From Clostridia bacterium (GTDB lineage: Bacteria; Bacillota; Clostridia; Oscillospirales; CAG-272), in the NCBI GenBank assembly GCA_017455905.1, contig JAFTLQ010000015.1, positions 964-64,963 on the forward strand: a DNA stretch of 64,000 nucleotides, read 5' to 3'. The notes below the pieces were generated by a model. That model searched no databases and had not been told where the DNA came from. It saw only the letters and a list, made by a program, of their open reading frames with translations. Of this stretch, positions 3,001 through 55,707 are shown in pieces. The stretch's first letter is position 1. Every line of letters begins with the position of its first letter. Made by a program: the position numbers and the translations under genes.

Positions 3001-6000
3001 GTACGTAGTAGCTCTTGGTCATACCGAAGTCATTGACGAGGCAGTCGATCCTACCTGTACGAAAACAGGTCTTACGGAAGGCTCACACTGCGGCCGTTGC
3101 GGCGCGGTGCTTGCAGCACAGGTTGTTGTTTCAAAGCTTGACCACACCTACGTTGCCGAGGACGAGGCAACCATTGCGACGACGTGCGAGAGACGCGGTT
3201 ACCGTACCAACACCTGTACGGTGTGTGGCTACACCTACGAGACCCCGACGGGTGATTCCGTTGAGGAGCACATCGAGAAGTACCGCCAGTACCATGAGGC
3301 CAAGGCGCCGACGTATACGGCGGTCGGTTGGGAGGCGTACATTGACTGCCGCGCCTGCTCGTACACGGAGTACAAGGAGATCCCCATGCTGGAGGCAGGT
3401 ATCATCCGCGACTACGATCTCTTTATGAAGAATCTGCTTCTGCTGGAGGATCTGGCGTTCCGCTATGCCAAGGAGATGCCGGGTGTGGATCCGCTGAACC
3501 TTGTCATTAAGTACATTCGTACGGGCGTGGATCGCTACAATTCGGGCTCGTGGGGCATTATGGCCGGCTACGAGGACAAGGGCTTTGCCGACTTCGTATC
3601 GAAGTACGAGGACGATTACAATGCCAACCTCACTGAGGAGTCCGAGATGCTCACGGTCAGCTGGCTGAAGAATCTCGGCAACATCCAGCTGCCGAACGGA
3701 CAGGTGACCGACATCGGACACATGTTCGGTACGATGGACATTACCTATCACAACAACTACGGCGTCAATCACGCGGACGTCGCCGGTTGGGCGGGCGACC
3801 TGGTCGACCTGCTCAGCGTCAGCGACCAGTTCGGCGTGACGGCGACGACGTTTGAGGCGCTGGTCGCGGAGGTGCGCGAGAACTATCTGCTTCGCGGTAC
3901 GTTCCCCGAGGAGACCAAGGAGGGCTCGTTCAGCCTGACGGATATGTACGGCGACCTGGACGGCCTGTACGTGATGAACATGCTGCAGGCACAGTCGTAC
4001 GAGCAGGGTGACCTTACGCAGATCATCGAGGAATACTTCACCGAGGATCTGTCGGACGCGGACCGTGCGGCGTACTTCATCCGTACGCGTATGAACGGCG
4101 TCAGCCTGCGCTCGGCTCTGCGCGAGGCGGTGTACAATGCGTACACGGGCAACAAGGTCATTGCGACCCTGGAGGCTACGCGTGAGTTTGAGTCGGAGGA
4201 TCTTGAGACGCTGCGCCGTGCGTGCTGCTATGCCTTTGCGGATTACATCTGCGAGCTGGCAGGCGACTACGTCGGCTCGGTAGAGAACTCGTACTTTACG
4301 GTCTTTGAGTCGGAGAGCTCGACGCTGGCACCCGGCATTACGCAGGATCTCAAGAAGGCGACGAGCCGGGACGGCAAGCAGATGGTCTATTACATCGCGA
4401 CGGCTGACCTGACGCGCGACGACGTCAACATTTACGCCAACTACAAGGATAACGATCCGACCGAATGGGGCATGCAGCGCGTGCTGGATCAGGCGAACGC
4501 TGCACAGAACAAGTACGGCGACCCCGAGAGCGAATATTACATTCCCAACTACAACGTTATCGTTTCCATCAACGGCTCGGGCTACAACATGCAGACGGGT
4601 GAGCCGGGCGGCCTTTTGGTCATGAACGGCGTGGAATATCAATCCATCAACTCCAGCGGCTTCTTCGCCATCCTCAAGGACGGCACGCCGATGATCGGTA
4701 CGCAGGCGGATTACGCGATTTACAAGTCGCAGATCGCCGAGGGTATCGCCGGCTTCGGAAGCACGCTGATCAAGGACGGCAAGATCACCATCACCGGCAC
4801 GAGCGATTACTACAATCAGCGTGCCAGCCGTACGGCGGTCGGTATCACGCGTACCGGCAAGGTCGTGTTCATGGTTCTGGACGGCCGTCAGGAGCCCTTC
4901 TCCTGCGGCGGTAGTATGGAGGAGATCGCGCAGATCATGTTTGAGGCCGGCTGCGTGCAAGCGGTCAACCTCGACGGCGGCGGATCGACGACCTTCGTTG
5001 CTAAGGAAGAGGGCGCCGAGGAGCTGGCGGTCATCAACCGCCCGTCCGACGGCTTTGCCCGTTCGGTCAGTACCTCTTTGATCATGGTTTCGACGGCTCC
5101 GAGCTCGACGGCCTTTGATCACGCGGTGCTGGACACCGAGATGGATTATCTGACGGTCGGCACGTCGCTGACCGTGACGCCTTCCGGCGTCAGCGCGACG
5201 GGTAACGCCGCCGAGCTGCCCGAGGGATATACGTGGGCGGTATCCGACGGTACGATCGCGTCGATCGATGAAAACGGCGTCGTGACGGCGCTGGAAAACG
5301 GCGACGTCGACGTGCAGCTGATGCTGGGCGACGAGATCCTTGGTGAAAAGACGCTGCACGTGGTCGTGCCCGACACGATCTATTTCCCCAAGAGCAATAT
5401 TGATGCGGTCTACGGCGAAAAGGCCGAGCTGCCCGTCATTGCTCTGTACAATAACAAGCCCGTGGCCATTACGGCCGACGATCTCGGCTTTATGCTCAGT
5501 AATGAGAAGGCCGGTCATATGGAAGGCATCTACTTCATCGGTGACGAGGATGCGGGCATCAAGAAGCTGGTCATTACGGCGGTCCTCCTTGCCAACGAGG
5601 AGGTCGGCGCGAACGTCAACGTTTCGCTTTACAAGCAGGGCGAGAACTCCTTTGACTTCGATCAGGCGACGGGCGGTAACCGCGAGTTTGCCTGGTACCG
5701 CGACGTGTCCAACGCGACGACGGAGAACGGAAGTCTGTACGAGATCATCGATCCGAATAAGGATATGGTAACCTCCTACACCTTCGCCATCGACATGACG
5801 CAGATCCCGATCCCCGAGCAGCTGGCGGATCTGACGACGATGCTGCCCGGCGCTGACGTGGAGGGGGCATCTGCATGGACCTTCCTTTGCCAGCTGGCCG
5901 AGCGTGTCAGCGTGCTGACCGAGATCAAGGCGGTCATGCAGCTGGATCCGAGCGTCACGGTGGATTATTCCGAGGTCCAGCTGATCAACGAATATTTCGA

Positions 6001-9000
6001 GCTGGTCGATACGGTGCTTGACGAGGAGACGAACACGCTGACCATTACGCTTAAGTGGATTGACCAGACGCAAGCGATCGATGTGGAGACGGCCAATCCC
6101 CTGTGCATGCTTACCGGCATCAAGCTGACGCCGAAGGACGATGCGACCTGGAAGACGGGCGAGCAGCTGCCTCTGGTACACAGCGGTGAGGTCAGCTATG
6201 CGATCTATCTGCGTGCCAACGCGCTGTACACCTTCTCCGCTAAGGAAGAGAACCAGAAGATCTACGGTCTGAAGCCCTTCATCAATCCCGATAATGCTTC
6301 GGAAAAGGGCGGTTATTTCGAGTCCGTGTATGCGACCCTTGAGGATACGTACACGCTGTCCCGTGCCGTCAAGAACGGTTGGGTCATCGACGAGGGCGGT
6401 TATGCGTACTACGTGGACGGCACCAAGCTGACCGGCATTCAGTTGATCGACGGCTACTACTACAACTTGGGCGAAAACGGCATCAACGTCGGTAAGACCA
6501 AGTACACCGGTCTGTTTGAGGAGGACGGCGTTATCCGTTATTCTCAGTACGGTGAGGTAGCGGTCGGATGGCACATGATCAATAATGCATGGCACTACTT
6601 TGACGAGCAGACGGGCAACGCGTACGTCGGTGAGAAGACGATGGCTGTCGATGGCGCGACGATCACGTATCTGTTCGACGAGAACGGTCGTGTGACCGAG
6701 GACGTGTGGTATACCAACGCGAGCGGTCAGACCTATCGCTACTACGGTCCTTCCTACTACTATCGCCTTTGGAAGGATATTGACGGTGAAACCTACTTCT
6801 TCACCTACACCGGCCCTGTGGCCAAGGGTGTATACCCCATTCAGAACAACCCGCACGAGCCTATATACTATTATGTATTCCATCAGCAGACGGGTGAGCT
6901 GATCTCCATCTGTGACGGCTTCGTGACGCACAGCGACGGCAGAACGTATTACTATCCCACCTACGGCTCCGGCGCGATGCTGTACGGTTTGAACAAGATC
7001 GGTGACTACTATTACTACTTCGCTGCAAGCGGTGAGTACATGGGTCAAGTCCTGACGGGTGTCATCACGGTGCCTCCGTATGCATCTAACGGCATTCTGA
7101 CCTTTGACAAGACGCTGACCTTCCACGATACGCTGTGGTATGCGATCGATGAAAACGGCGAGCCGATCACCGAGATCGAGGACGTGACGTATCCGTTCTT
7201 CTATGAGCAGGGTGACAACACGTACTGTTATCTTGCGCCCGGTCAGCTTGCTTACGGTCTGCAGAAGATCGGTGATTACTACTACTACTTCTCGACGAGC
7301 TCGGGTGCTATGCGTACGGGTGAATACACCGTTGTATGGTATGCATCGAACGAACTTCTCACGAAGGATCACACCTTCCTCTTCGATGCGGAATACGGCT
7401 ACGCCGTGGATGAAAATGGCAACCCGCTGACCTCGCTCGACTTCGGCGAGGACGTACCGGTCGATCCCATCGATCCGCCGGTCGAACAGACGTATCCTGC
7501 CTTTATTGAGAAGGACGGCAAGGTGTATTACTACTTCTCGGAGGAGGCCCAAGCGTTTGGCTTCCAGAAGATCGGTGATTATTACTACTACTTCTCGACG
7601 AGCTCGGGTGCTATGCGTACGGGTGAATACACCGTTGTATGGTATGCATCGAACGAACTTCTCACGAAGGATCACACCTTCCTCTTCGATGCGGAATACG
7701 GCTACGCCGTGGATGAAAATGGTAACCCGCTGACCTCGCTCGACTTCGGCGAGGACGTACCGGTCGATCCCATCGATCCGCCGGATGAGCAGGAATATCC
7801 TGCCTTCCTTGAGAAGGACGGCAAGGTGTATTACTATCTTGCGAAGGATCGCGTGGCGACCGGCTGGTATACGATCGACGGTCAGTGGCATTACTTCGAC
7901 CAGACCACCGGTGCGGCGTACGTTGGCAAGCACACGGTGGACGTGGACGACATGCACATCGTGTACATCTTTGACGAGCACGGTATGGTGACCGCGGACG
8001 CTCTTGTGACGGATCCCGACGGGCAGACGCTTCTGTATAACGGTCCTGACCGTTACAGAAACGCTTGGATGACGGTCGATGAGGTAACGTATTACTTTAC
8101 CGACACGGGTGCGGCTGCATGCGGTGTATACGCCGTACAGAACGTCGGTGAGCCGGAGTACTCCTACGTCTTTGATCAGACGACGGGTGCATTGATCTCC
8201 ATCTGCGACGGTCTCGTGACGCACAGCGATGGTAAGACGTATTACTATCCCACCTACGGCTCCGATGAGACGGCTTGCGGTCTTACGAAGGTTGGTAATT
8301 ACTATTACTACTTCGACGAGAACGGCGTGGCTCTCACGGGCGAACAGATGGTGACGGTATTGGCATCGAACGGCAAACTGACCTTGCCGAAGACGATCAC
8401 CTTCGACGAGGAGAAGCTGTGGGCGATCGATGAGAACGGTCAGCCTCTGACGCATATTGCCGATGCACAGTATCCGCTCTTCTTTGAGGAGGAAGGCAAG
8501 CTCTATTATTACATTGCCGCAGGACAAAAGGCAAAGGGCTTCTATTCCATTGATGGTCAGTGGCATTACTTCGACCAGACCACCGGTGCCGTTTACGTTG
8601 GTAAGCAGACCGTCAAGGTCGGCTCGCTCTCTATCACGTACGTCTTTGACGAGCGCGGTATCGTGACCGAGGACGTCCTTGTGACGGGTACCGATGGCAA
8701 GACGTATCTGTATCACGGTCCCGACTGCTACAGAGACGCTTGGAAGTCGATCGACGGCGAGACGTACTACTTCAACTATACCGGTGCGATGGTCAAGGGC
8801 CTGTACCCTGTGCAGAATGCCGGTGAGCCGGAGTACTACTACGTCTTTGATCAGGCGACAGGTGCGCTGATCTCCATCTGTGACGGCTTCGTGACGCACA
8901 GCGACGGAAAGACGTATTACTATCCCACCTACGGCTCGGCAGCTGTGATGTACGGTCTTCATAAGATCGGTGATTACTATTACTACTTCGATTCCAACGG

Positions 9001-10237
9001 CGTTGCTCGCACGGGCGAGCAGACGATCCCTGCGTATGCGTCGAATGGCATTCTGACCTTGCCGAAGACGATCACCTTCGACGAGGAGAAGCTGTGGGCG
9101 ATCGATGAGAACGGCGAGCCGCTCACCAACATCGAGGATGTGACGTATCCGCTCTTCTTCGAGCAGGATGGAGTGACGTACTATTATCGCAAGGCGGATC
9201 GCGTAGTGACCGGCTGGTACGAGATCGACGGACGTTGGCATTACTTCGACAAGACGACCGGTGCGGCGTACGTTGGCAAGCATACGCTGAGCGTTGGCTC
9301 GGCGCGCGTGACCTTCGTCTTCGACGAGTACGGTATGGTAACGGAGGATGCCTGGTATGTCGATGCGGATGAGAAGACGTATCTGTATTACGGTCCCGAC
9401 TGTTACAGAAGCACTTGGAAGACGGTCGACGACGAGACGTACTACTTCAACTATGCCGGTGTGCTCGTTAAGGGCCTGTACCCTGTGCAGAACGACAATG
9501 AGCCGGAGTACTACTACGTCTTTGACCAGGCGACAGGTGCGCTGATCTCCATCTGCAACGGCTTCGTGACGCACAGCGACGGCACGACGTATTACTATCC
9601 CACCTACGGTGAGGCCTCGGTGGACTACGGTCTTAAGAAGATCGGTGACTACTATTATTACTTCGGCTCCAGCGGTGCGGCACACACGGGTGAGCAGACG
9701 ATCCCTGCGTATGCAGCGGGCGGTCTGTTGGAGACGTCGGTCGTGCTTCGCTTCGATCCGACGCAGCTGTATGCCGTCGATGAGGATGGCAATCCGCTGA
9801 CCTCGTTGTCCTTCGACTCGGAGAAAGAGCCGCCGAAGTTTGACGAATATCCTGCGTTCGTGGAGGTGGACGGTAAAACGTATTACTACCTCGATGAGGA
9901 TACCGTAGCCTACGGCTTCCAGAAGATCGGTGACTACTTCTACTACTTCTCCACGACGGATGGCGCTATGCGTACCGGTGAATACACGGTACAGGCTTAC
10001 ACGTCAAACGGTTACCTGGAGGAAGCGCGCGCCTTCTTCTTCCATGAAACGTACGGATACGCCATGGAAAAGGCCGACGGCGAGCCGATCACAGCGATCG
10101 AGCCTCTGCCCGAGGACGTACTGCAGGACGGCGTGGACCGGGTGCTTGGTGAGCCTATGCTGCTCGTGCTGATCTTTGTCAGCTGCGTGGGCATCTTCGT
10201 CGTCTGGGCATTCGTATTCAATAAGCGCTACCGTTGA
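2..10237 (+). CDS. giant multidomain cell-surface protein (5' end lies outside the window)
   Basis: The reading frame is already open at nt 2 ([14 protein letters not shown]...), so the track start at 20 is an internal codon. About two dozen ~35-38-aa Cys repeats (GH..V..PTCT..G.T...C..C) run up to ~nt 3250. [17 protein letters not shown]...[20 protein letters not shown]...[10 protein letters not shown] (~4380-5090) resembles the phosphodiester glycosidase (DUF2233/NAGPA-like) family. An Ig-like Big_2-like segment lies at ~5150-5370. From ~6400 there are many GW.YFD / KIGDYYYYF cell-wall-binding-type repeats in ~215-aa super-repeats. The C-terminal hydrophobic helix is [20 protein letters not shown] followed by NKRYR. 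A terminator follows the stop. Confidence 0.9.
7262..7784 (+). repeat. two near-identical 220-nt segments at a 303-nt offset inside the giant gene
   Basis: 7262-7481 and 7565-7784 differ at only a few positions (gattactac vs gattattac, ggcaaccc vs ggtaaccc). Both encode [73 protein letters not shown]. The off-frame track ORFs 7203-7430 and 7506-7733 are almost identical for the same reason. Confidence 0.9.
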
Positions 10238-44599: not shown

Positions 44600-45145
44600 A
44601 TGAGATTGATACAAGCGAGAAAGCTCGCCCACCGGATCAAGATACATCGGCTCTACCGAAAGGCGTTTCCTACGAATGAACGCAAGCCGTTTTTTATCAT
44701 CCGATCCATGCAAAAGAAAGGAAAGACAGACGTTTGGTATTTTGAAAAAGAGGGAGCCTTCGTCGGCTTCGCAACGACCATCAACGGAGGTGACCGGATC
44801 CTTTTGGACTACCTTGCGGTTGTCGAGAAGAAGCGAGGCAAGGGCATCGGAACGGACATGCTGAAGCTGCTTCGGACGCAGTACGAAGGGAAGGGCATTT
44901 TCCTTGAAATTGAACGGCCTTGCGCGGACGCTCCCAACGCAGAGGAACGCATCCGACGAAAGCAGTTTTACCTCTCGTGCGGAATGAAGGAGTTGAATGT
45001 CTCTGCCCGTGTATTCGGTGTTGACATGGAGCTTTTAGGCTGGGATTGCGTAATGGATTACGAGGATTACCGCTTGTTTTATCGGGATAACTACAGCGAA
45101 TTTGCCGCCGAGCATATTCAGCGTTGTGACGGCGATTCCATCTAA
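44600..45145 (+). CDS. GNAT family N-acetyltransferase
   Basis: LAVVEKKRGKGIGTDMLKLL (acetyl-CoA binding Q/RxxGxG/A-type motif). Confidence 0.8.
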   Translation: MRLIQARKLAHRIKIHRLYRKAFPTNERKPFFIIRSMQKKGKTDVWYFEKEGAFVGFATTINGGDRILLDYLAVVEKKRGKGIGTDMLKLLRTQYEGKGIFLEIERPCADAPNAEERIRRKQFYLSCGMKELNVSARVFGVDMELLGWDCVMDYEDYRLFYRDNYSEFAAEHIQRCDGDSI

Positions 45146-45185
45146 GTGTCGGAACGAAAGATGAAGGGCAGAAGGGAGATAACTC

Positions 45186-46049
45186 ATGATTTTGCAAACA
45201 AAACGTCTCATTCTGCGCCCTTGGCGCGAGGATGATGCAGAAGAATTATATAAATACGCGAGCGACCCGGAGGTAGGCCCACCTGCCGGATGGCAACCGC
45301 ACACGAGTGTGGAGAATAGCCGAGAGATCTTTCGGGGCGCGCTGTCTGCGCCCGAGACCTATGCCGTTTGTCTCAAAGAGAACGGTAAACCTATTGGCAG
45401 CATTGGACTACATCGTAACGACCTTGCGGAGCAGGACGATGAATACGAGCTTGGCTATTGGATCGGCAAGACCTTCTGGGGGCAGGGCCTCATTCCCGAA
45501 GCCTCGCGCGAGATGCTTCGCCACGCCTTTGAAGATCTCGGCATAAATAGAGTTTGGTGCGGTTATTACGACGGCAACATCAAAAGCCGTCGTGTGCAGG
45601 AAAAGCTCGGCTTTGTCTATCATCATACCACTGAAGGACTTGCGGTCAAGCAAATGAACGAGATTCGCACAGGTCATGTGATGCTGATGACGAGAGAAAC
45701 GTGGGAGAAAGAACAATATTTTGCCGATTATGAAGTATGCACTGAGAATGATGTGTCTGAAATAACTGCAAAAGGCATAGCCCTAAAAAACGAAATGTTT
45801 ATCGATTTTGAAGAATGCACGAAGATGTGGGCAAAAATGAACGATGTAGAACAATCAAAATGCATTGGTGAAAGAGATATCGAGGATTTAAGCTTCACGT
45901 TTTACACTCTGCCGAAATCCATTATGATTAAATTCCTTGAAAAAGGAAGGTTTGTGGAGTTTCTTTCGAAGAATAATGTTCACAGACGTTTTCACAATTT
46001 GCAAAACAAGATTGTTGAGTTTGGATATAGAACTTTCGATATGACCTAA
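45186..46049 (+). CDS. GNAT (RimJ/RimL-like) N-acetyltransferase with a ~110-aa AT-rich C-terminal extension (probable chimeric ORF)
   Basis: [30 protein letters not shown]...[17 protein letters not shown] is a complete RimJ-like GNAT ending near ...[11 protein letters not shown] (~45715). The ORF then runs on into visibly AT-rich DNA to 46049. Confidence 0.7.
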
Positions 46050-46071
46050 TGGAATATTTCCGTTTGGCAGA

Positions 46072-46668
46072 GTGACAAATAAGAATTTGAAAGGGAGGTA
46101 TTGTCATGGATATCACATGACGGCCTCCGATATCAGCGACGGAGAGCTTGCGGAAGCAAGAGGGAGAGCCGCAAAGAACAATGTGCAGCTTCCATTTGTA
46201 AAGACAGACTTCTGTGCTTTATCGGAGACCTTCAGAGAACCGTTTGACGTTGTGATCTGCATGGATAACGCACTGCCGCATATGCTCACAAAGAGTGCGT
46301 TGGAGGCGGCAATCAAAAGTATCACAAATCAGATCACAGATGGCGGTATGTTTGTTGCCAGTATCCGAGATTATGATGCGTTGCTTATGGATAAGCCGCC
46401 ATATTCACCCCCTTATATCCATAAGACTGACAAAGGGCAAAGAGTATCTTTTCAAACATGGGTCTGGGACGGCGAGCATTACAAGCTGACGCAGTATATC
46501 ATTGATGATGAAGGAACTCTGCAGATCAGTAAATTCGACTGCGAATACAGAGCAATACGCAGAGAAGAGCTGACAAGCTTGCTGGTTGCGAATGGCTGTC
46601 GTGAGGTGGTATGGAAGTTCCCGGAAGAAACAGGATTCTATCAGCCGATCGTAATAGCAAAGAAATAA
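46072..46668 (+). pseudogene. class I SAM-dependent methyltransferase lacking the N-terminal SAM-binding motif I (5'-truncated)
   Basis: ..HMTASDISDGELAEARGRA...FDVVICMDNALPHML...GGMFVASIRDYD matches the post-motif-I part of small MTases. No GxGxG motif or credible start/SD lies upstream. Confidence 0.6.
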
Positions 46669-46707
46669 CAGAAGAAAACATCAAATGAGAATTTGTAAGG
46701 CGGTTTT

Positions 46708-47181
46708 ATGAAAAGGGTAACAAGTGTAGGAATACTTTTAGCGGTGCTGGCTGCGGCTCTCTATGCCATCAACGCTCCTTTTTCGAAGCTACTGCTCGAT
46801 TATATGCCCTCTACACTGATGGCAGGATTTTTGTATCTTGGCGCAGGGCTGGGGATGGGTATTATCGCTTTGTTCAGAAGATTCAAAAATGCTGAGCGAA
46901 CGGAAGAAAAAATAACGAAAGCAGACCTGCCGTACACGGTGGCTATGATAATTCTCGACATTGCTGCCCCGATTTTCTTGCTCCTTGGACTTTCGTACAC
47001 CTCTGCGGCAAACGCCTCGCTTCTCAACAATTTTGAAATCGTAGCTACGGCACTTATCGCATTGGTAATTTTCAAAGAGAAAATTAGCCCAAGACTGTGG
47101 CTTGGTATTCTGTTCGTTACAGTTTCCTGTGCGCTCCTCTCAATTGAGGATATAGCAAGTTGCAGAAAAGCTGTCGCTTGA
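46708..47181 (+). pseudogene. DMT/EamA family transporter, first half only (3'-truncated)
   Basis: One EamA domain (5 TM helices, ~150 aa), whereas the family normally has two. Homology ends near LLSIED (~47150) and a stop follows after a short unrelated tail. Confidence 0.55.
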
Positions 47182-47185
47182 ACGA

Positions 47186-47833
47186 AACGCTCCGTTTAAT
47201 CGCTCGGATTTTTTTGAAGACTATGTTGATCTGTGCGATTATCAACTTGATAGAGCTGTTCCAAAGGAAAGCAAAATCATCACGAGCGATGGCGTTTTTG
47301 AAAAGGTACTGGATATTCGTCGTATCAATGATGGCATAGACAGCAAACGATTCGACTTGATTGATGAATACATCGCAGAAAACAGCCCTAATGCTGAGCC
47401 TAATCAACTACGCGGATTAGACGATTATGATAGGTGGAAACGCGTGAGTGATATGAGAAACAGAAATCGCAGTCAATCTCGTTTCTTGAAAGAAAACCTG
47501 ATGCGGAATATTCAAGAGCGCTCAAATGGCGAAAGTGCTTTGTCGTATTTCGTTGACTCAATTCAGGAGAAGGCGCTATATCTTTTGGATGAGCCTGAAA
47601 ACAGTTTATCTCCTCAAAATCAATTGCAACTGAAATATTTTATTGAAGATTCAGTAAGAAATTTTGGTTGTCAGTTTGTTATTTCTACACACTCACCGTT
47701 CTTGCTCTCTCTTAGAGGCGCACATATATACAACATAGATGAAACACCGCCTACGGAGAGAAAATGGACAGAGCTTGATTGCGTAAAAGTGTATCATGAT
47801 TTCTTTGTTGAGCAAAGTGATAAATTTAATTAA
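47186..47833 (+). pseudogene. AAA/ABC-like ATPase C-terminal fragment (5'-truncated, no Walker A)
   Basis: The frame is open from 47156 without a start. It contains YLLDEPENSLSP (Walker B/D-loop type) and ISTHSPFLL (H-loop type), but the N-terminal P-loop region is absent. Confidence 0.55.
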
Positions 47834-48319
47834 TTGAAAGCGATCTATCCTCCCGTCGGTGAATACGGGAAGCAAGGGTGAGCATCATAAAAATTCGTCT
47901 TATTCTGTCTTTTTAGCGCTGTTTATTGACGTTTAGTGATACCTATTACATATAGATCACTTTGTTATACAAAAGTGACAGAAGTTGACTTTTGCCAAAT
48001 GGTAAAAACCCTTTTTTGCGGACGCTTTTTGCTCGTTTTGACTTCTCAAGCACACAAAAGTTGTCAAAACGCGCTCTTTGCGCTCTTATCTCCGTGTACT
48101 CCGGTTCTGTTTATGGTCAAAGATGTGGTCAAATCCAAGTACCGAATGATTGATATGTGGTCACGAAATCCCAAAAAGCGCAAGCTGCTTTCGGGGTGCC
48201 CCCGAAGATAAGAAAACGCAAAAATCATGTGATAAACATACCGCCATCAGAGAAGAAACGCACCAACCGCCACATGTGGTCAGCCGTGCAGAAAAAAAGA
48301 TAAACATGTGGTTAGGCTA

Positions 48320-48348
48320 TTGATAAAATTCCAAAAACATGTTATAAT
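48320..48348 (+). promoter_or_regulatory. consensus extended -10 promoter of the candidate ncRNA
   Basis: TTGATA (48320-48325), 17-nt spacer, TGtTATAAT (48340-48348). Confidence 0.7.
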
Positions 48349-48354
48349 GCGTTT

Positions 48355-48670
48355 GCGCTATATGCGTCGTCGACCTGCTCCTATGCGAGAATGCGGCAAA
48401 ATACTAACACTCTTGTATGAGACGTGACTGTGTCTCTTAACACTATTGGTAGAGGGCTTATCCTTAAAGTTTAACACAGGTTGGTGCGTTTGTAAGTTTG
48501 ACACCGTAACGCCTGAGCCAAAATTAGTCAAGATAGGGCACGTGACACGAAAGTGCATCACGATATGCAGCCTGTATGTAAATGTTAGTTTAAGACAGGT
48601 GACGAAATGTTTAAATGACGTGAACGGAACTTACATCCCCGAACCGTTAGGTTCGGGGGCTTTTTATTTT
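48355..48670 (+). ncRNA. candidate orphan non-coding RNA (~310 nt), class unknown
   Basis: It lies between a near-perfect promoter and a strong intrinsic terminator. There is no SD-preceded ORF on the plus strand. Several local hairpins are present (GAGAC-N8-GTCTC at ~48421-48438, CCTGT-N19-ACAGG at ~48571-48599). I could not match it to any RNA family from memory. Confidence 0.45.
48637..48670 (+). terminator. intrinsic terminator of the candidate ncRNA
   Basis: CCCCGAACC / GGTTCGGGG stem, GTTA loop, then GCTTTTTATTTT. Confidence 0.85.
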
Positions 48671-48697
48671 CTCGGGTTGTTGCATTTTAACTCTTGC

Positions 48698-48721
48698 GAA
48701 GGGCTTTGTCAAGCCCTTTTC
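48698..48721 (+). terminator. second (tandem) terminator
   Basis: GAAGGGCTT / AAGCCCTTT stem, TGTC loop, followed by TTTT. Confidence 0.6.
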
Positions 48722-48899
48722 GCCGTTTGTTTGCTACTCGTCGGTCGAGCACGACGAGCTTAACGCAAATAGTTGCTACGATTTGGTCGCGCGCAAATTG
48801 TGACGCAAGGAGTCGCATCCGTAATAGCGGTATGCAAGGCCCCTTGAAAATAAAAATCAGCACTCAGAATTTGATATGCAGTAAACAAAGAAAACGGGT

Positions 48900-49430
48900 T
48901 CAGCCGTTGATGCCGTAAGCGCCCGTCAGAGGATCCTTGAAAATGCCGATTTCAGGCGTTGCGAAGGTGAACACAACGAACAGAACGGCAATTATGCAGA
49001 GAACGGCAAAAGCAATCTTGGGTGATTTGCACGCTGTCGTTCCATTGTTAAACTGCCGCGTTTCGTAGATATATGCAATCACAGCAGAAACAAAGAAATT
49101 CGCGATGTTGATCCAATCAGGCGACCGACCGATCACGCCGTTGTAGGTATAAAAGAGAACAGGAATAAGGACAAGGCCGAGAAGTGCGCCTTTTAACTTA
49201 ACGCACCAAAATTCTTCACGATCCTTGAAGAAAAAGCTCTGCACAATAGCAAAGATGAACATCGGCCAAAAGAGCAGCTTCATGTGCTCCCACGTGGATT
49301 CGTTCACGCCCGAAAAGGGCGCGACCCATGCAGATCCGCCTGTCCAATCGTATAAAAAATGTAGTAGCGTACCGGCGAGCGACGTTACCGCAAAGCCCAT
49401 CAGCTGCCACAAACCTATTGATCGTTTCAT
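48900..49430 (-). CDS. DUF6512-like membrane protein
   Basis: LLHFLYDWTGGSAWVAPFSGVNESTWEHMKLLFWPMF pattern as I recall it for the DUF6512 family, with 5 TM helices. Confidence 0.7.
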   Translation of the reverse strand: MKRSIGLWQLMGFAVTSLAGTLLHFLYDWTGGSAWVAPFSGVNESTWEHMKLLFWPMFIFAIVQSFFFKDREEFWCVKLKGALLGLVLIPVLFYTYNGVIGRSPDWINIANFFVSAVIAYIYETRQFNNGTTACKSPKIAFAVLCIIAVLFVVFTFATPEIGIFKDPLTGAYGING

Positions 49431-49483
49431 AGTCCCACCTCGGAATATTTATTTTTAAAAAGTATATTCAAAGATAGGACTTT

Positions 49484-49663
49484 CTATTCTTCGTTTGTTT
49501 CTGCCCGTTCCTCGCACAAGCTTCGCTGTGTTGCAATCGTCGCTAGTGTATCACCGAGCTGTACAAAAACGGTGGCAAGCAATGTAATTTCGTCGACGGA
49601 TAGTTTGCATGAAATCGCATTAGCGAGTGCGGTCACAGCAGAGGTCAGTTCAAGTGAGTTCAT
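49484..49663 (-). CDS. small DUF6774-like protein (59 aa)
   Basis: Not in the track (<60 aa). It encodes MNSLELTSAVTALANAISCKLSVDEITLLATVFVQLGDTLATIATQRSLCEERAETNEE, with an AAGAGGTGA SD upstream, in the same orientation as and upstream of the DUF6512-like gene. Confidence 0.6.
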   Translation of the reverse strand: MNSLELTSAVTALANAISCKLSVDEITLLATVFVQLGDTLATIATQRSLCEERAETNEE

Positions 49664-49746
49664 TGCATATCACCTCTTTATATGATATGCGAAAAACGAA
49701 GAAAAGCAAACGCATTCGAACCCACCGCCATGTTCATATATTACGG

Positions 49747-49775
49747 TTGAAAAAGGACGAAAATTATGGTATAAT
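49747..49775 (+). promoter_or_regulatory. consensus promoter at the start of the long untranslated region upstream of the recombinase operon
   Basis: TTGAAA (49747-49752), 17-nt spacer, TATAAT (49770-49775). Confidence 0.6.
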
Positions 49776-50069
49776 ATAACCCCTAAAAACAAAAAGAGCA
49801 GGCGAACCTGCTCAAAACAACTCAATATTTACCCCAAAAGTAAGCATAAGCAAAAAATATCAAGTGTCCATAACTTGAATCTGTTATGAACACTCGATAT
49901 GCCAAACTAGATATTTCTTGATACGCCATAATTTATGCACCAAAAGGGTAGTATAATTTCACGGTGCAACCACCCCCAAAAAGGTAGTTTTCGAGGTGTT
50001 ATTTTTGCATTTCGCTCATTCATAAAAAATTATCAATTCCATTCTCTACTAATACATTATAGCAGCCGA

Positions 50070-50101
50070 GTCAGGGTCAAAATAGGGCCTTGACTTTTTT
50101 T
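50070..50101 (+). terminator. intrinsic terminator/attenuator immediately upstream of the recombinase operon
   Basis: GTCAGGG / CCTTGAC stem (one G-U) followed by TTTTTTT. It ends 25 nt before the GGAGG SD of the first operon gene. Confidence 0.55.
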
Positions 50102-50138: not shown

Positions 50139-50333
50139 ATGAAACGAAAAGATGCAGAGGCTGAAACAAGATACCGCCTGGGCAACTTCATTATGCTCAA
50201 TCTTTACAAGCAGGGCGTAATTACAAGAGAACAGTATCTTGAGATACGGGATAGGCTGATAGACGAATACAAGCCTGTCATTGGAGAATTAGAAAGGGGG
50301 CTACCGTGGATACTAGACGAGTTAGAAAAGTAA
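50139..50333 (+). CDS. small recombinase-associated protein (hypothetical)
   Basis: GGAGG SD with 8-nt spacing to ATG 50139. It overlaps the recombinase start by 28 nt. Confidence 0.6.
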   Translation: MKRKDAEAETRYRLGNFIMLNLYKQGVITREQYLEIRDRLIDEYKPVIGELERGLPWILDELEK

Positions 50334-51742
50334 CTGTTATCCCAGCAATAAAGCCGTTAGAGGCTTTGAGAAAAAAGAAAAGGGTAGCAGCTTATGCTCG
50401 TGTTTCAACGGGTTCTAGAGAGCAGGAAACGAGCTTAGTGGCACAGAGAGAATACTACGAGAAGCTGATTCGGAATAACGAGGAGTGGCTTTACGTAGAT
50501 GTTTATTACGATGATGGAATATCAGGTCTATCATTTAGGAATCGAGAGGGATTTAATCAAATGATTGCGGATGCTCTCGACGGCAGGATAGATTTGATCT
50601 TGACGAAATCACTGTCACGATTTGCTCGAAACACGGTGGATACATTGACAACTATACGCAAGCTCAAAGATGCGGGAGTAGAGGTGTTCTTCGAAAAGGA
50701 AAACATCTATACTATGGATGCCAAGGGAGAGTTCCTTATTACGCTTATGAGTAGCCTTGCCCAAGAGGAGAGCAGATCCATTTCTGAAAATATCACTTGG
50801 GGCAAAAGAAAACATTTTGCTGATGGCAAATATGAGGTGGCGTTTGCTATGTTTTGGGGCTATGAGAAAGGTGACGATGTTGTTCAAATGATTATCAACG
50901 AAGAGCAGGCCCCTATAGTTAAACTCATATATACCTTGTTTCTCGGTGGGCACTCGTCATACGGAATAGCTGCTATTTTGGATAATTTACAGATACCAAT
51001 TATGTGCGGGGACAAAGGTTGGTGTGCTTCTACAATAGAAAGCATTTTATCTAATGAGAAGTACAAGGGTGATGCGCTATTGCAGAAAAGCTATACGGTT
51101 GATTATCTAACAAAAAAGATGAAAAAGAATGAAGGGGAGGTGCCCCAGTATTATTTGGAAAAAGTTCATCCCGCTATTGTCTCCGATGATGTCTTCGCTT
51201 TGACACAGGAAATGCTTCAAGAGCGAAGAATGAGAGGAGATAAATATTATAGCGGGACCGACCCGTTTTCATCGAAAGTGATTTGTCCCAATTGCGGGGA
51301 TACATATGGAAAAAAGCCTTCTCACAAATACGTGGATAATTTGCTTTATTACTCACAGTTCTGGGTGTGCAAATCGTATTATAAGAAGAAATGCGGGTCC
51401 CCAAAGATAAGAGACGAAATAGTATGCGGCTATTTCCGCCTGGCGTTAGTACAATTATTTACTGATTATAATGATGTAATAGAGTATTGTAAAAAAACAG
51501 TGCTAGACTATTATGGCGAAGTGCCCCAGCATTATGTAGAAGATTTATTATATGACTTATCCCGGAACAATTACCGAGATTGGTGGATAGAAAGGCTCAT
51601 TCGAGTTCTCCTTGTGCGAGTAGAAGTGTCTATGCACCACAGACTGACATATTGCTTCATTGACGGGAGCAGACGGAATTTTGAATATCAACCTCGAAAC
51701 GACAGAATGTTGAAAACACCAGATGAACGTAAGAAACAATAG
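50306..51742 (+). CDS. large serine recombinase
   Basis: RVAAYARVSTGSREQETSLVAQREYY (catalytic Ser motif), DLILTKSLSRFARN, a recombinase domain, and a zinc ribbon (CPNCGDTYGKK...WVCKSYYKKKCGSP). GTG start after an AGGGGG SD. Confidence 0.9.
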   Translation: MDTRRVRKVTVIPAIKPLEALRKKKRVAAYARVSTGSREQETSLVAQREYYEKLIRNNEEWLYVDVYYDDGISGLSFRNREGFNQMIADALDGRIDLILTKSLSRFARNTVDTLTTIRKLKDAGVEVFFEKENIYTMDAKGEFLITLMSSLAQEESRSISENITWGKRKHFADGKYEVAFAMFWGYEKGDDVVQMIINEEQAPIVKLIYTLFLGGHSSYGIAAILDNLQIPIMCGDKGWCASTIESILSNEKYKGDALLQKSYTVDYLTKKMKKNEGEVPQYYLEKVHPAIVSDDVFALTQEMLQERRMRGDKYYSGTDPFSSKVICPNCGDTYGKKPSHKYVDNLLYYSQFWVCKSYYKKKCGSPKIRDEIVCGYFRLALVQLFTDYNDVIEYCKKTVLDYYGEVPQHYVEDLLYDLSRNNYRDWWIERLIRVLLVRVEVSMHHRLTYCFIDGSRRNFEYQPRNDRMLKTPDERKKQ

Positions 51743-52394: not shown

Positions 52395-52805
52395 TCATTC
52401 TTCGAGGTTGTCGGGGTTCTTCAGATAAATCGGTATCCTCGCATTCTTAAAGCCGAAGTGCAGCCAAACCTCACCTTCGGAGGATGCATCAATATCAAAG
52501 GTATCTGCTAAGGAGATGGCTTCGGCTATCTCCTTGCATCCGTAGAAGCTATATACCCAATCCTTGACCATTAAAGACATCCCCGTTCCCAGCAACTCGT
52601 CAAACACGATTTTATGTTCTGCATCGGGGGACTCTTTATGTATGACCTCAAGAATGCGGTCTATAGCTTTGGTAGCGCGGGGATAGTTTACGGGATGAAC
52701 CATCCACATATTGGTCTTGGGGAGCTTGTCCGCCCACTCACGAATCAAGCCGAGAATGGCTTCTTCCTCTGGGGAAGTGTACTCAAAATCTTCGTTCATA
52801 ATCAA
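52395..52805 (-). CDS. hypothetical protein
   Basis: 136-aa ORF, 4-nt ATGA overlap with the upstream minus-strand gene. No motif recognised. Confidence 0.6.
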   Translation of the reverse strand: MIMNEDFEYTSPEEEAILGLIREWADKLPKTNMWMVHPVNYPRATKAIDRILEVIHKESPDAEHKIVFDELLGTGMSLMVKDWVYSFYGCKEIAEAISLADTFDIDASSEGEVWLHFGFKNARIPIYLKNPDNLEE

Positions 52806-53152
52806 ACCTCCTCGTTTTTCTTAAGAGCTTTGAATAGCTCTTTTCTTTTTTGTCTGCAAGCGGGGCAACGTTTCGGCTCCGAAAGTTTGCGTTCCTCATA
52901 GTATTTTTGCTCTCCGCCTGTAAAGAGGAACGTTTCGCCACAGTCGCAGCACACGATCTTTTTCTTCTTTCTCTTGTGCTTCTTTGGGGCTTCGGGTTTT
53001 ACCTCAACAACCTTGGTGGTTACGAGATAGATCTTGCTTCCTACTTCCTGTGTGACTCGGTAAATAGGTGTGTGTTCGTTCTCCTGCTGGCGGAGCGCAA
53101 AACGCTCCTCGATGATTTCCATGTTGTCCTCAAAATACTTTGCAAAACTCAT
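52802..53152 (-). CDS. zinc-ribbon (zf-trcl-like) domain protein
   Basis: CCDCGETFLFTGGEQKYYEERKLSEPKRCPACRQKRK matches the CxxCG..F.F...EQ.FY....PKRC..CR pattern of the probable zinc-ribbon family. A lysine-rich linker precedes it. Confidence 0.7.
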   Translation of the reverse strand: MSFAKYFEDNMEIIEERFALRQQENEHTPIYRVTQEVGSKIYLVTTKVVEVKPEAPKKHKRKKKKIVCCDCGETFLFTGGEQKYYEERKLSEPKRCPACRQKRKELFKALKKNEEV

Positions 53153-53229
53153 TTTTTCTGTCTCCTTTTTTTGTTTTTATAGCGTTGTAGAGTGGGGGGC
53201 GTGTAGATAGCTGTGACGGTTGGTGTGCG

Positions 53230-53640
53230 GGGGTACATATAAATAGCAGAGGTGTGTACCCCCTTATATATAGTAACGGCGTACAACCTCCTAAATATAT
53301 AGGGACGGTGTGTAACTGCTTATATAGACCTAGGGGACAACCGTCTGCTAATATATGTACTCGCTGTTCGGTGTTGCGAAATAATGTACTCACTGTTGCG
53401 TCCTCCTTTTTTATATGTAACCACTGTTGCATTTTCGCTTATATATGTACTCACTGTCAACCTCCTTATATAGGGAACAGCGGTCAACCCCTTTATATAG
53501 CGTTGGGTGTTAGACTCTTTTGTTATAGTACCGTAGCCGACAACCCCCAGTTATATAGCCGTTGCCCCGCGCCGTTATAATAGCAAAAGACGCAACCCCC
53601 TCTGCTGTAGTAGCAAAAGGTGTGACCCCTATATATAGGG
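53230..53640. repeat. array of ~15 degenerate direct repeats, period ~25-31 bp (mean ~28), each with a C-rich block followed by a TTATATAG-like core
   Basis: TATATA-type cores lie near 53240, 53267, 53296, 53322, 53352, 53383, 53413, 53443, 53468, 53495, 53525, 53553, 53578, 53607 and 53632. Example units: gtcaacctccTTATATAGggaac, gtcaaccccTTTATATAGcgttg, gacaacccccagTTATATAGccg, gtgtacccccTTATATATAGtaac. A sub-family TATATGTACTCACTGTTGC lies at 53349-53460. Confidence 0.85.
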
Positions 53641-53650
53641 TAAAATCATT

Positions 53651-53692
53651 AACCCCCTTTTGCGGCACTAACATAAGAGTGAAAAGGGGGTT
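53651..53692. repeat. perfect 11-bp inverted repeat capping the repeat array
   Basis: AACCCCCTTTT (53651-53661) and AAAAGGGGGTT (53682-53692), separated by 20 nt. Confidence 0.85.
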
Positions 53693-53852
53693 ACAGACTA
53701 TTCAGTTGATATGCGCCTCTAAAAGTCGGTAAAAACCGACAACTTTTTGCAAGGTGATGCGAAAATACGACAACTCGGCATTTACAAATAGCGGGATGTG
53801 TGATATAATAAAAGCACAGAATGCAGAAATATTTAGTTTGGAGGCAAATTAC

Positions 53853-54383
53853 ATGGTAAAAGCGCCTATCACAAAAGAATATAAAACGCTAGAGGAAATC
53901 AAAAGAATGATCGAGCTTGAAGATGATTTCCATGATGCCGAATTGATGGATATCGCCATCAAGAACGGTGATGCTTGGTTTGGGATTTGGCAATATGGTC
54001 ATCGTTTCACGTTTGCTTGCCGAGAAATTATGAACCTTGAAATGAATATGGACCTAAAACTGGTAAGTCTGTATGAAGTAGATATAAAGCAATGTGAAGA
54101 TGGTGTAGAACTAACCTTTGACGAGGTGGGAGTTGTTATTAAAGCGAAAGAAGTCATATTAGAGGAGCTAATTCTTCCCAAGGATTATGAGCTATCGGAT
54201 GAGGAGAAAACGGCAATTAAGACGAAAATAGAAGCTCCCGATGTATATGTCAAATGCCCTCGATGTGGCGGGGAATTGCACTACAACAAGAAGTTCGATT
54301 TAATCGATGTTCGTTGCTATTCGGATGGCTGTATAAAATCGTCGTATTTGTTATGCGATGAAGAAGTGGAGGACGTAAAATGA
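53853..54383 (+). CDS. hypothetical protein with C-terminal zinc ribbon
   Basis: GGAGG SD and ATG 53853 (the track start at 53754 lacks an SD). CPRCGGELHYNKKFDLIDVRCYSDGC near the C-terminus. Confidence 0.65.
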   Translation: MVKAPITKEYKTLEEIKRMIELEDDFHDAELMDIAIKNGDAWFGIWQYGHRFTFACREIMNLEMNMDLKLVSLYEVDIKQCEDGVELTFDEVGVVIKAKEVILEELILPKDYELSDEEKTAIKTKIEAPDVYVKCPRCGGELHYNKKFDLIDVRCYSDGCIKSSYLLCDEEVEDVK

Positions 54384-54697
54384 AGAAAAAGGGATATAGC
54401 CGTGAAGGTTTGTTTGGAAATATCAATCATTATGATGAAAGAGGCAGGAAAGTGGGACAGAGTCGCCCTGGTTTCTTCGGAGGTTACAACCACTACGATG
54501 AAAATGGAAAAAAGGTAGGGCGTAGCTCTCCTGGCTTGTTTGGTGGCTACAATCACTATGATGAACATGGTAATAGGAGTGGTAGAACCAGTCCCGGATT
54601 ATTTGGAAATCTAAATCATTATGATGAACACGGCAGAAGAACGGGAACCAGTACCCACGGCTTGTTTGGCGGCTTTAACCATAAGGGTAAGAAATAA
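54380..54697 (+). CDS. Gly/His-rich tandem-repeat protein (five ~20-aa GLFGG.NHYDE.G...G.S repeats)
   Basis: GLFGNINHYDERGRKVGQSRP / GFFGGYNHYDENGKKVGRSSP / GLFGGYNHYDEHGNRSGRTSP / GLFGNLNHYDEHGRRTGTSTH / GLFGGFNHKGKK. ATGA overlap with the upstream gene. Confidence 0.65.
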   Translation: MKKKGYSREGLFGNINHYDERGRKVGQSRPGFFGGYNHYDENGKKVGRSSPGLFGGYNHYDEHGNRSGRTSPGLFGNLNHYDEHGRRTGTSTHGLFGGFNHKGKK

Positions 54698-54711: not shown

Positions 54712-55707
54712 ATGAAATCGAATGAAAAATACAACCGAATTCGCCCTTTGAAGATTTGGGAGATCTTGCAGAGAGAAACAGATGAAGACCATCCTATGGG
54801 AACCGAGGAACTCCGTGCGAAACTGTTGGAGTGTGGAATTGAAGCACATAGGACCACCATTTATGAGGACATTAAGCTCCTCAATGAATGTGGTTATGAG
54901 ATTATGTCCCGTAGAGGTCGAAGCAACCAGTATTACGTGATGGACAGAAGTTTCTCTAATCCGGAGATTCATATTCTTTTAGATGCAGTTCAGGCTGCAA
55001 GCTTTATTACAGACAAAAAGACAGCCGAGCTTGTTGACAAAATCGCTCAGTTGGCAGGTAGCCAAAAGGGGCTTGTCTTGAAAAAGAACATCGTCCAGTT
55101 TAACACCGCAAAAAGCTCCAACGAAAGTATTTATTATAACGTTAATGAAATAGTATCTGCCATTAACAGCAGACGAAAGATCATCTTCCTTTACTTCGAT
55201 TACGATAACAATCACAATCGTGTGTACCGTAAGGATGGACATCACTATGTTGTAAGTCCTTATGCCACCGTTTTTGATGATGGACATTACTATCTTGTGA
55301 TTTACGACAAGCGTTACAACAAGATGACAAACTACCGCATCGACCGTATGGACAAAGTGGAGATCATCGAAGAGCTTGCAGACATGCCGCCCGAGGAGAT
55401 GCAGTTTGATATTGCCAATTACAAGAAATCTCTTTTCGGAATGTTTTCGGGAGAGACCACAGCGGTAACGATTGAAGCACACCGCACCTTAGTGGATGCT
55501 ATCTTCGATCTCTTTGGTGAGAGAACAAGAATTATCTCCAACGGAGAAGAGACCGTGCGTTTTACCGTCGATGTTCAGGTGAGTGCGTTGTTCTTTGGCT
55601 GGTGTTGCTCGTTTGGAGAGAAGGTCAAACTGCTCGGTCCCGCTAACATCATTGAGCAATTGAAAGAGTACAACGAAACAATTAAGAATCAATACGAGGA
55701 GAACTGA
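54712..55707 (+). CDS. WYL domain-containing transcriptional regulator (N-terminal HTH)
   Basis: HTH (IWEILQRETDEDHPMGTEELRAKLLECGIEAHRTTIYEDIKLL) plus a WYL-type core (IIFLYFDYD...YVVSPYATVFDDGHYYLVIYDKRYNKMTNYRIDRMDKVEII). Confidence 0.8.
   Translation: MKSNEKYNRIRPLKIWEILQRETDEDHPMGTEELRAKLLECGIEAHRTTIYEDIKLLNECGYEIMSRRGRSNQYYVMDRSFSNPEIHILLDAVQAASFITDKKTAELVDKIAQLAGSQKGLVLKKNIVQFNTAKSSNESIYYNVNEIVSAINSRRKIIFLYFDYDNNHNRVYRKDGHHYVVSPYATVFDDGHYYLVIYDKRYNKMTNYRIDRMDKVEIIEELADMPPEEMQFDIANYKKSLFGMFSGETTAVTIEAHRTLVDAIFDLFGERTRIISNGEETVRFTVDVQVSALFFGWCCSFGEKVKLLGPANIIEQLKEYNETIKNQYEEN

Follow-up and report, generated by a model that had tools for sequence, protein, structure and literature searches.

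Here we describe an array of 15 degenerate head-to-tail direct repeats in a 64,000-nucleotide stretch of DNA from a Clostridia bacterium of the order Oscillospirales (GenBank assembly GCA_017455905.1, contig JAFTLQ010000015.1, positions 964 to 64,963 of the forward strand; the whole stretch is called the window hereafter, and coordinates are those of the window), and we suggest that it may be a multi-operator nucleoprotein platform belonging to two small adjacent genes of a serine-recombinase element. The array lies on the plus strand at 53230 to 53662, in a divergent intergenic region that an initial annotation of the sequence had bounded correctly, with the start of a minus-strand gene for a zf_Tbcl (PF13451) protein at 53152 on one side and the start of a plus-strand operon at 53853 on the other. 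The binder that we propose is zf_Tbcl itself, a protein of 116 residues (52802 to 53152, minus strand) that combines a CxxC...CxxC finger with the basic linker KKHKRKKKK, possibly acting together with the product of the next gene, an acidic protein of 136 residues to which no family is assigned (p136; 52395 to 52805, minus strand; the two genes overlap by 4 nt). Both the identity of this binder and the effect of its binding are what we infer from conservation and gene co-occurrence, and we hold this reading tentatively, favouring it while putting it at somewhat less than an even chance.

The repeat units are 24 to 34 bp long, start at approximately 53236, 53263, 53292, 53319, 53349, 53379, 53410, 53438, 53465, 53492, 53522, 53550, 53574, 53605 and 53629, and have a mean core-to-core period of 27.9 bp, in agreement with the roughly 15 repeats of about 28 bp first proposed for this region; altogether they span about 430 bp. 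Motif discovery by Gibbs sampling, together with a MAFFT alignment, gave the bipartite unit motif TTATATAG-N~11-(G)YCAACCCC, in which the distance from the core to the C-block downstream of it within the same unit is tight (10 to 13 bp) and the distance from the C-block to the next core is variable (0 to 5 or more bp). Units 5 to 8 (53349 to 53464, plus strand) form the tighter sub-family that had been noted at this position, TATATGTACTCACTGTTGC or 'type B', which occupies the middle of the array and also occurs in L156, one of the more distant of the related loci, to which we refer by such handles. Tandem Repeats Finder reported nothing over the array because its units are too degenerate, and a repeat search of the window recovered it as families D1 to D5, with spacings of 27 to 30 bp. 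Moreover, 109 4-mer matches at lags of 25 to 31 were counted within the array against 15.5 +/- 5.4 in 500 dinucleotide-preserving shuffles, none of which reached 109; the second harmonic (lags of 52 to 60) was equally strong as the first, and the array was the highest-scoring tile for periodicity in the entire 64-kb window. Every occurrence in the window of TATATAG (7/7), of TTATATAG (4/4) and of AACCCCC (3/3) falls inside the array. Similarly, when both strands of the window were scored with a bipartite position weight matrix (PWM; core plus C-block, with a gap of 2 to 9 bp), the 13 top matches were all inside the array, and on about 200 kb of related loci the matches clustered in homologous arrays only. 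The bipartite motif with its periodicity is highly non-random and confined to the array.

Relatives of the locus were found via the contigs of homologues of zf_Tbcl (36 clusters) and of the 176-residue protein that is encoded first in the divergent operon (11 clusters); p136 is rare, its homologues forming no more than 45 clusters in a set of 1.84 billion representatives. Full arrays, with 11 to 15 cores per locus, accompany the gene pair in the window, L006, L007, L001, L145 and L155, where zf_Tbcl lies upstream and p136 next to it as far as the contig reaches (the L006 and L007 contigs end inside or just beyond the zf_Tbcl gene). The distant relatives L146 and L156, in which zf_Tbcl is 73% and 52% and p136 59% and 45% identical, carry 5 to 7 units that match the window units at scores of 15 to 18 against 7 to 8 +/- 1.3 for shuffled sequence, with zf gene DNA that is 65 to 71% identical; both site types are found there, and no 176-residue, WYL or HTH-Zn genes. 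The array is thus conserved in syntenic related elements, and it passes the check on conservation that the initial annotation had set. It is present in 5/5 of the other contexts that encode both zf_Tbcl and p136 (L001, L145, L146/147, L155 and L156), which span 52 to 97% protein identity for zf_Tbcl and 45 to 95% for p136, and its orientation relative to zf_Tbcl is constant in all contexts with the gene pair. L151 to L154, which have a 56% identical zf_Tbcl and no p136 homologue, have no array.

Among the genes tested, only zf_Tbcl and p136 adjoin every longer array, and arrays occur irrespective of the recombinase, the two HTH-Zn paralogs, the WYL regulator, the 176-residue protein and the cargo. 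For example, the left neighbours of full arrays vary between a recombinase module, ClpP with a phosphatase, an AAA_14 ATPase and host genes, and the right-hand cargo, which mostly consists of the 176-residue protein, WYL and bacteriophage exclusion (BREX) genes, is made up in L155 of a 283-residue protein, a 600-residue protein, DUF4238 and restriction-modification genes. Because the array keeps company with zf_Tbcl and p136 only, we assign the putative platform to that gene pair, and of the roles suggested initially a scaffold for a small zinc-ribbon protein gives the best fit to the co-occurrence, the array travelling with zf_Tbcl and p136. Two other candidate binders named at that stage gain no support from these loci: the WYL gene is missing in L146, L155, L156 and L003 (the last with a full array and a 173-residue gene that no WYL gene follows), and the HTH-Zn paralogs are missing in all five other contexts, and the array is kept in each case. 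Shortened arrays of 3, 3 and 4 to 6 units in L009, L010 and L135, the first two of which are records of Oscillospiraceae metagenome-assembled genomes, have the 176-residue operon on one side and an unrelated left flank on the other. Outside the related loci, no match to the element was obtained by megablast in phage or plasmid collections, protein searches of viral contigs and of metagenome contigs gave no relatives, a 17-mer search of the same two sets gave chance matches only, and a search of viral contigs for the bipartite pattern returned 10 chance matches and no arrays.

Three of these loci show local peculiarities. In L146 (9821 to 9865), two head-to-head units share one TATATA and form a 42-bp near-palindrome, GGGGGTTGCAAACCGCCC-TATATA-GGAACGGCAGTCAACCCC. 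In L005 (3945 to 4044), a run of 100 N lies exactly over units 1 to 8, and the locus is 99.2% identical to the window on the left of this gap and array but 96.9% identical on the right; possibly the array marks the border of a mosaic or varies within the L005 sample. In L009 (9597 to 9730), a 43-codon 3' fragment of a sporulation-type sigma gene (...TQREIALQLGISRSYVSRIEKSALEKL) abuts the shortened array next to spoVAD/spoVAE, as if a relative of the element had interrupted a sigK-type gene in a skin-like manner.

Comparison of the related arrays also bears on whether the repeats are under selection. Array segments are 60 to 97% identical among relatives, against 85 to 98% in the flanking genes, and whole units have been gained or lost. 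One explanation would be a neutral or near-neutral minisatellite, in which drifted tandem duplications of a promoter-proximal segment, with the -10-like TATA core of the zf_Tbcl promoter, are inherited by linkage to the gene and have no function themselves. The faster divergence of the array than of the genes beside it agrees with this, as do the gain and loss of single units among the window, L006, L003, L001 and L007 and the similarity of the promoter-proximal TTTATAGCG to the unit core. We nevertheless consider a minisatellite unlikely, though not negligibly so, in view of how the conservation is distributed. The motif information sits in two blocks and the spacers differ among paralogous units; the 8-nt cores are preferentially conserved among orthologous arrays (0.84 versus 0.74 elsewhere, a difference that 0 of 421 circular mask shifts reach); both site types are retained at 52% protein identity, a distance at which nothing else of the intergenic region can be aligned; and orthologous units retain their individuality, so that there has been no concerted homogenisation. 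The data fit an array of what would be independent protein-binding sites, under selection for two short blocks.

Several other classes of repeat were considered and rejected. A coding repeat is incompatible with a period that is not a multiple of 3 and with indels of 14 to 32 nt in relatives, which disrupt every open reading frame (ORF), and no ORF in the array is preserved across the indels of the relatives. As had been proposed from the outset, the array is neither a set of clustered regularly interspaced short palindromic repeats (CRISPR) nor an ordinary operator: its units are contiguous, without spacers, and 60 to 80% alike, whereas CRISPR repeats are near-identical, 23 to 50 bp in length and set apart by unique spacers of comparable size, and family searches found no Cas family near it except generic WYL and DEDDh accessory models. 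By eye, no consensus match was seen to a dif/Xer-like 28-bp site, sporulation-sigma promoters, an integration host factor (IHF) site or Chi clusters, and sigma-70 promoters inside the units were discarded as the minus-strand TTGAC-like and TATAA-like blocks are merely 9 to 11 bp apart.

The array is also without RNA-structure character. Searches of Rfam 15 gave no match at the gathering score (best sub-threshold E = 0.44), the folding z-scores of the array are modest (-2.5 for the plus strand and -4.0 for the minus strand), and RNAalifold returned a penalising covariation term of +5.3 with compensatory changes in 2 of 104 predicted pairs. The repeat-derived RNA that the initial annotation had listed among the possible roles is not borne out by these results, and the variable unit length together with the floating spacing between C-block and next core points to independent binding sites and not to a folded RNA or a coding repeat. 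A wider version of this idea holds that the array works as RNA (as a type III, ToxI-like antitoxin, a protein sponge or the zf_Tbcl 5' leader) or as a set of tandem promoters of a non-sigma-70 type. In its favour, CAACCCCC-TTATATA-G is similar to the layout of T7-type promoters, every unit ends in TATA-G after a specificity-like block, the folding z-scores are negative on both strands and the zf_Tbcl fold could equally well bind RNA. However, we regard it as highly improbable: besides the Rfam and covariation results, the units are too degenerate and their lengths too variable for a processed antitoxin, the downstream gene has a strong promoter of its own, which separates it from the array, no toxin or RNA polymerase gene was recognised, and in L146 the units would face into the 3' end of a convergent gene. 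ToxI repeats are near-identical, are present in 2 to 5.5 copies, are followed by a terminator and the gene of an endoribonuclease toxin, with which they are co-transcribed from one promoter, and form a defined pseudoknot. They resemble the present array in being head-to-tail repeats of about 30 nt, without spacers, before a gene on a defence-rich element, and differ from it in that we find 15 degenerate units, no covariation and a separate promoter; moreover, no match to ToxN, AbiQ or CptN was found among the proteins searched near the array.

We therefore return to the proposal that the array is a platform for zf_Tbcl and p136. In this model, each unit of 24 to 34 bp would represent one asymmetric bipartite site, with the AT-rich core TTATATAG and the C-rich YCAACCCC about 11 bp downstream of it, and a second site type, TATATGTACTCAC, would occupy the middle of the array. 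The basic zinc-finger protein zf_Tbcl, alone or with p136, would bind these units cooperatively and so form a nucleoprotein tract of about 430 bp. This tract would autoregulate the promoter of the zf_Tbcl/p136 genes, whose putative -10 element is itself a unit core, and would also modulate, dampen or insulate the strong outward cargo promoter at 53781 to 53809, which would drive the WYL/BREX-side genes. The invariant K/R-rich linker of zf_Tbcl, together with its CxxC/CxxC finger, makes the protein a plausible nucleic-acid binder. In addition, the unit-type core TTTATAGCG includes a minus-strand TATAAA at 53176 to 53181, about 24 nt before the zf_Tbcl start codon, which we infer to be the -10 element of the zf_Tbcl/p136 operon.

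A number of observations weigh against this model. AlphaFold models of zf_Tbcl (pLDDT 79) and of the 176-residue protein (pLDDT 66) gave no significant structural matches in Foldseek searches of the PDB, and no DNA-binding fold was demonstrable for either protein; a full-text literature search returned no paper on PF13451, a domain without characterised function. For the zf_Tbcl operon, the promoter scan gave neither a convincing -35 element nor a mapped promoter. In L009, L010 and L135, arrays of 3 to 6 units are retained with no zf_Tbcl gene next to them, the co-occurrence may in part arise simply because an upstream region is physically linked to its gene, the binder could instead be a host factor that is conserved, and 15 sites over 430 bp exceed by far the usual need of autoregulation. 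Sequence searches against the PDB were uninformative, and PHROGs, NCBIfam, PADLOC and relaxed Pfam searches gave nothing for p136, for the 176-residue protein or for the N-terminal parts of the zf proteins.

On its right-hand side the array adjoins the promoter region of the divergent operon, whose first gene (53853 to 54383, plus strand) encodes the 176-residue protein with a C-terminal zinc ribbon. The 11-bp inverted repeat that had been described as capping the array is indeed exact (AACCCCCTTTT at 53651 to 53661 and AAAAGGGGGTT at 53682 to 53692, with a 20-nt spacer), but its attribution to the array has to be revised. It is not present in L146 and L156, where the 176-residue operon is also missing, and L155 has retained 13 units and the promoter but has lost unit 15, the inverted repeat and the first of two CGACAACT repeats. 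As L155 can lose it and still keep units and promoter, we assign the inverted repeat, on these sequence comparisons, to the promoter module of the 176-residue operon and not to the array. Its arms are conserved, and arm substitutions in L001, L005/6, L135 and L145 are uncompensated. A second inverted pair, which was overlooked in the first reading of the sequence, consists of the C-blocks GGGGGTACA (53229 to 53237) and TGTACCCCC (53255 to 53263), which flank the first core on the side of the array that faces the zf_Tbcl gene; its GTGCGGGGGT block is conserved in L146 and L156.

Directly upstream of the -35 hexamer of the operon, two direct repeats of the CGACAACT type, AAAAACCGACAACT and AAAATACGACAACT, lie 31 bp apart (53731 to 53775, plus strand) and constitute a probable operator. 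They are part of a highly conserved promoter module (53725 to 53809), and a terminator-like hairpin without covariation (53725 to 53740) overlaps the first of them. The module ends in a predicted sigma-70-type promoter, TTTACA-17-TATAAT with an upstream TG (53781 to 53809, plus strand; 11/12 positions), which would drive the 176-residue/WYL operon, is conserved in all relatives and precedes a different, unrelated cargo in L155; apart from this promoter, the scan found only one weak, non-conserved minus-strand site. Known regulatory sites of defence islands are the R-boxes of BrxR/WYL proteins, each a single inverted pair of 10- to 11-bp repeats that are 5 bp apart and located at or behind the promoter (PMC9122601). 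The present locus is similar in that it belongs to a mobile defence island with WYL and BREX genes downstream and has an 11-bp inverted repeat upstream of the operon. In contrast to R-boxes, however, this inverted repeat has a 20-bp spacer and lies about 89 to 100 bp upstream of the -35 element, the array consists of direct repeats, and arrays of its type occur without any WYL gene in L146, L155 and L156.

The array lies 3.2 kb inside an element whose left end, TATAGCAGCCGAGTCAGGG... (50058 to 50091, plus strand), was mapped by comparison with L005 and reads TATAGCAGCCGAG...; no inverted copy of this end was found in any retrieved DNA. Since a 99% identical element resides in L005 at another insertion site, inside an N6 DNA-methylase ORF, the element is mobile or was so until recently, with low target specificity. 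From the left, its genes are SHOCT_2, a large serine recombinase of 478 residues (50306 to 51742), the two HTH-Zn paralogs, and the p136 and zf_Tbcl genes on the minus strand, followed by the array, the promoter and the 176-residue operon. In that operon, the WYL regulator (54712 to 55707) comes after a 105-residue repeat protein, and further genes follow. Past the window end, the element cargo (L123, 11450 to 20381; L129) comprises HTH_26, a 1020-residue protein without family match, BrxP (778 residues), BrxC (1380 residues) and PglZ, which together make up a type 4 BREX system, about 8 kb downstream of the WYL regulator. Two contigs carry the sequence well past the window end: ena:ERZ28018951:k141_459494, by roughly 20 kb, and ERZ28654356 scaffold_423, a 92-kb scaffold whose start falls within the element.

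The position of the array within such an element raises the question of recombination-related sites, according to which the TATA cores would be pseudo-att crossover or docking sites of large serine recombinases at which islands are truncated, joined or exchange cargo. The element left end begins with TATAGCAG, which is identical to the core of unit 1; the two independently shortened arrays of L009 and L010 break 6 to 8 bp apart within the core of unit 13; and the cargo behind one array and promoter type differs between loci. Furthermore, the step in identity across the array of L005, the head-to-head pair in L146 and the make-up of the unit, whose inner AT block and outer block together take up about 24 bp, the size of a serine-integrase half-site in the LI and A118 att structures, are all in line with such sites. 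The L009/L010 breakpoints and the left-end TATAGCAG are hints that a recombinase may have acted on unit cores, for example by deletion between attL and a core. Against this, the left end is unlike a unit beyond TATAGC and its PWM score falls below the top 40 of the window, the motif is unchanged beside a recombinase that is just 36% identical (L146), no homologue of the window recombinase is found in the DNA retrieved for L001, L145, L155 and L156, and the units are direct and not inverted. An att site of a large serine recombinase consists of two inverted half-sites of about 20 to 25 bp on either side of a central dinucleotide and matches the ends of the element. As compared with such sites, the array shares the half-site-length unit, the AT-rich, TA-containing inner block and the TATAGCAG of the element end, and differs in its direct tandem copies, in the outer block that is missing at the true left end and in a motif that stays constant across recombinases. 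The equation of units with recombinase half-sites found no support from the PWM beyond the core, and the recombination reading as a whole seems to us rather unlikely. A more far-reaching variant, which we consider improbable, is that the array with zf_Tbcl and p136 forms a platform of a kind not described before, at the margin of defence islands in Oscillospiraceae; its cores (TATA|G) would be the points of cargo swap or island truncation, and its outward promoter would express whichever cargo is attached. The cargoes found behind it include type 4 BREX, restriction-modification with DUF4238, and others.

Repeats on an excisable element might alternatively be iterons of a replication origin or of copy control, used after the element excises as a circle. 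Iteron arrays are known from the R6K, P1, RK2 and SaPI origins, where repeats are typically about 17 to 22 bp long and usually in helical phase (about 22 bp). The likeness of the present array to the origin iterons of R6K gamma, P1 incC/incA, RK2 oriV and SaPI ori lies in the many repeats in the same orientation (about 5 to 15 of some 20 bp or more in those origins, about 20 to 30 bp in the iteron reading of this array), the intergenic position, the degeneracy outside an AT-rich core and the excisable element. Those origins, however, come with a Rep initiator, DnaA boxes and an unwinding element, whereas neither an initiator nor a primase, helicase or helicase loader was recognised near the arrays, be it in the 14 kb of the window that belong to the element, in about 12.7 kb further via L123/L129 or at the other array loci, and by eye no DnaA boxes, TTATCCACA-like box or separate AT-rich unwinding tract were seen in 53100 to 53900. 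A weak match to the PriA 3'-DNA-binding domain in L001, with a score barely over threshold, lies 4 kb away. In addition, the constant partners of the array are limited to proteins of 116 and 136 residues, the 27.9-bp period is irregular and off helical phase, and the arrays of L155 and L156 lie in apparent chromosomal islands beside housekeeping genes. In view of these points, we judge an iteron role improbable, at about one chance in ten.

Even less probable, and in our view hardly credible, is a centromere-like partition site of the parC, parH or sopC kind, to which a small adaptor protein binds. A direct-repeat array upstream of a small, autoregulated two-gene operon is the classic layout of type Ib/II par systems, and in par loci of types Ib, II and III the operon behind the array encodes a nucleoside triphosphatase together with an adaptor. 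In the omega (ribbon-helix-helix, RHH) heptads of pSM19035/inc18 and in the ParR/ParG centromere-operators (parC of R1 and pSK41, parH of TP228), a small protein binds repeats cooperatively and builds an extended nucleoprotein structure by which nearby promoters are controlled as well, and by analogy these arrays are similar to ours in comprising many short direct repeats that precede a small autoregulated operon of a mobile element. They differ in that their units are 7 to 20 bp long, whereas those described here are 24 to 34 bp, bipartite, asymmetric, irregularly spaced and of two types; moreover, the binder of the omega arrays is an RHH protein, while the candidate binder here is a treble-clef zinc finger and no partition nucleoside triphosphatase (NTPase) was found. 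Indeed, no NTPase of the ParA, ParM or TubZ type was present among the genes searched at array loci (the small genes of the window directly, the other loci via precomputed Pfam annotation), p136 is acidic and has no NTPase motif or family match, and the element is integrated and not a plasmid.

Taken together, the array fails the defining features of CRISPR, of ToxI-type antitoxins, of BrxR R-boxes and of iteron origins, the last of which require a Rep gene. By analogy, its nearest functional counterparts would be repressor or centromere repeat arrays, such as the omega heptads and parC/parH, and origin iterons, and it is best filed with iteron/operator arrays, associated here with two uncharacterised proteins that mobile Oscillospiraceae defence islands encode.

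Further features were seen around the array and elsewhere in the window. The 105-residue protein of the 176-residue operon (54380 to 54697) contains about 4.5 tandem 21-residue repeats, GLFGGYNHYDExGxKxGxSxP, with a weak RHS/YD-repeat match; it is present in L009, partial in L001 and L010, and undetected in the other array-bearing loci. The host DNA has a G+C content of about 55%, and beyond roughly 45 kb the window has about 42%. Between that point and the element, the low-G+C DNA (45000 to 50057) carries two GNAT acetyltransferase genes, a methyltransferase gene, DUF6512 and DUF6774, as well as fragments of EamA (46708 to 47181) and AAA_21 (47357 to 47833) genes; it may be what is left of an older island. 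A very long ORF of 3405 residues (20 to 10237) lies in the host part, where G+C is high.

Finally, a bipartite site of about 24 bp that is repeated 15 times is an unusual architecture, and what it means for these bacteria depends on which reading holds. If the array is a binding platform, it would provide the first functional handle on PF13451 and on the rare family of p136, and it would add a second, non-WYL regulatory layer to the mobile defence islands of abundant gut Clostridia. If the breakpoints within the cores were made by recombinases, the array would explain cargo exchange or the immobilisation of islands. And if a cargo-swapping platform does exist, it would be a functional analogue of the integron platform that is built from different parts.

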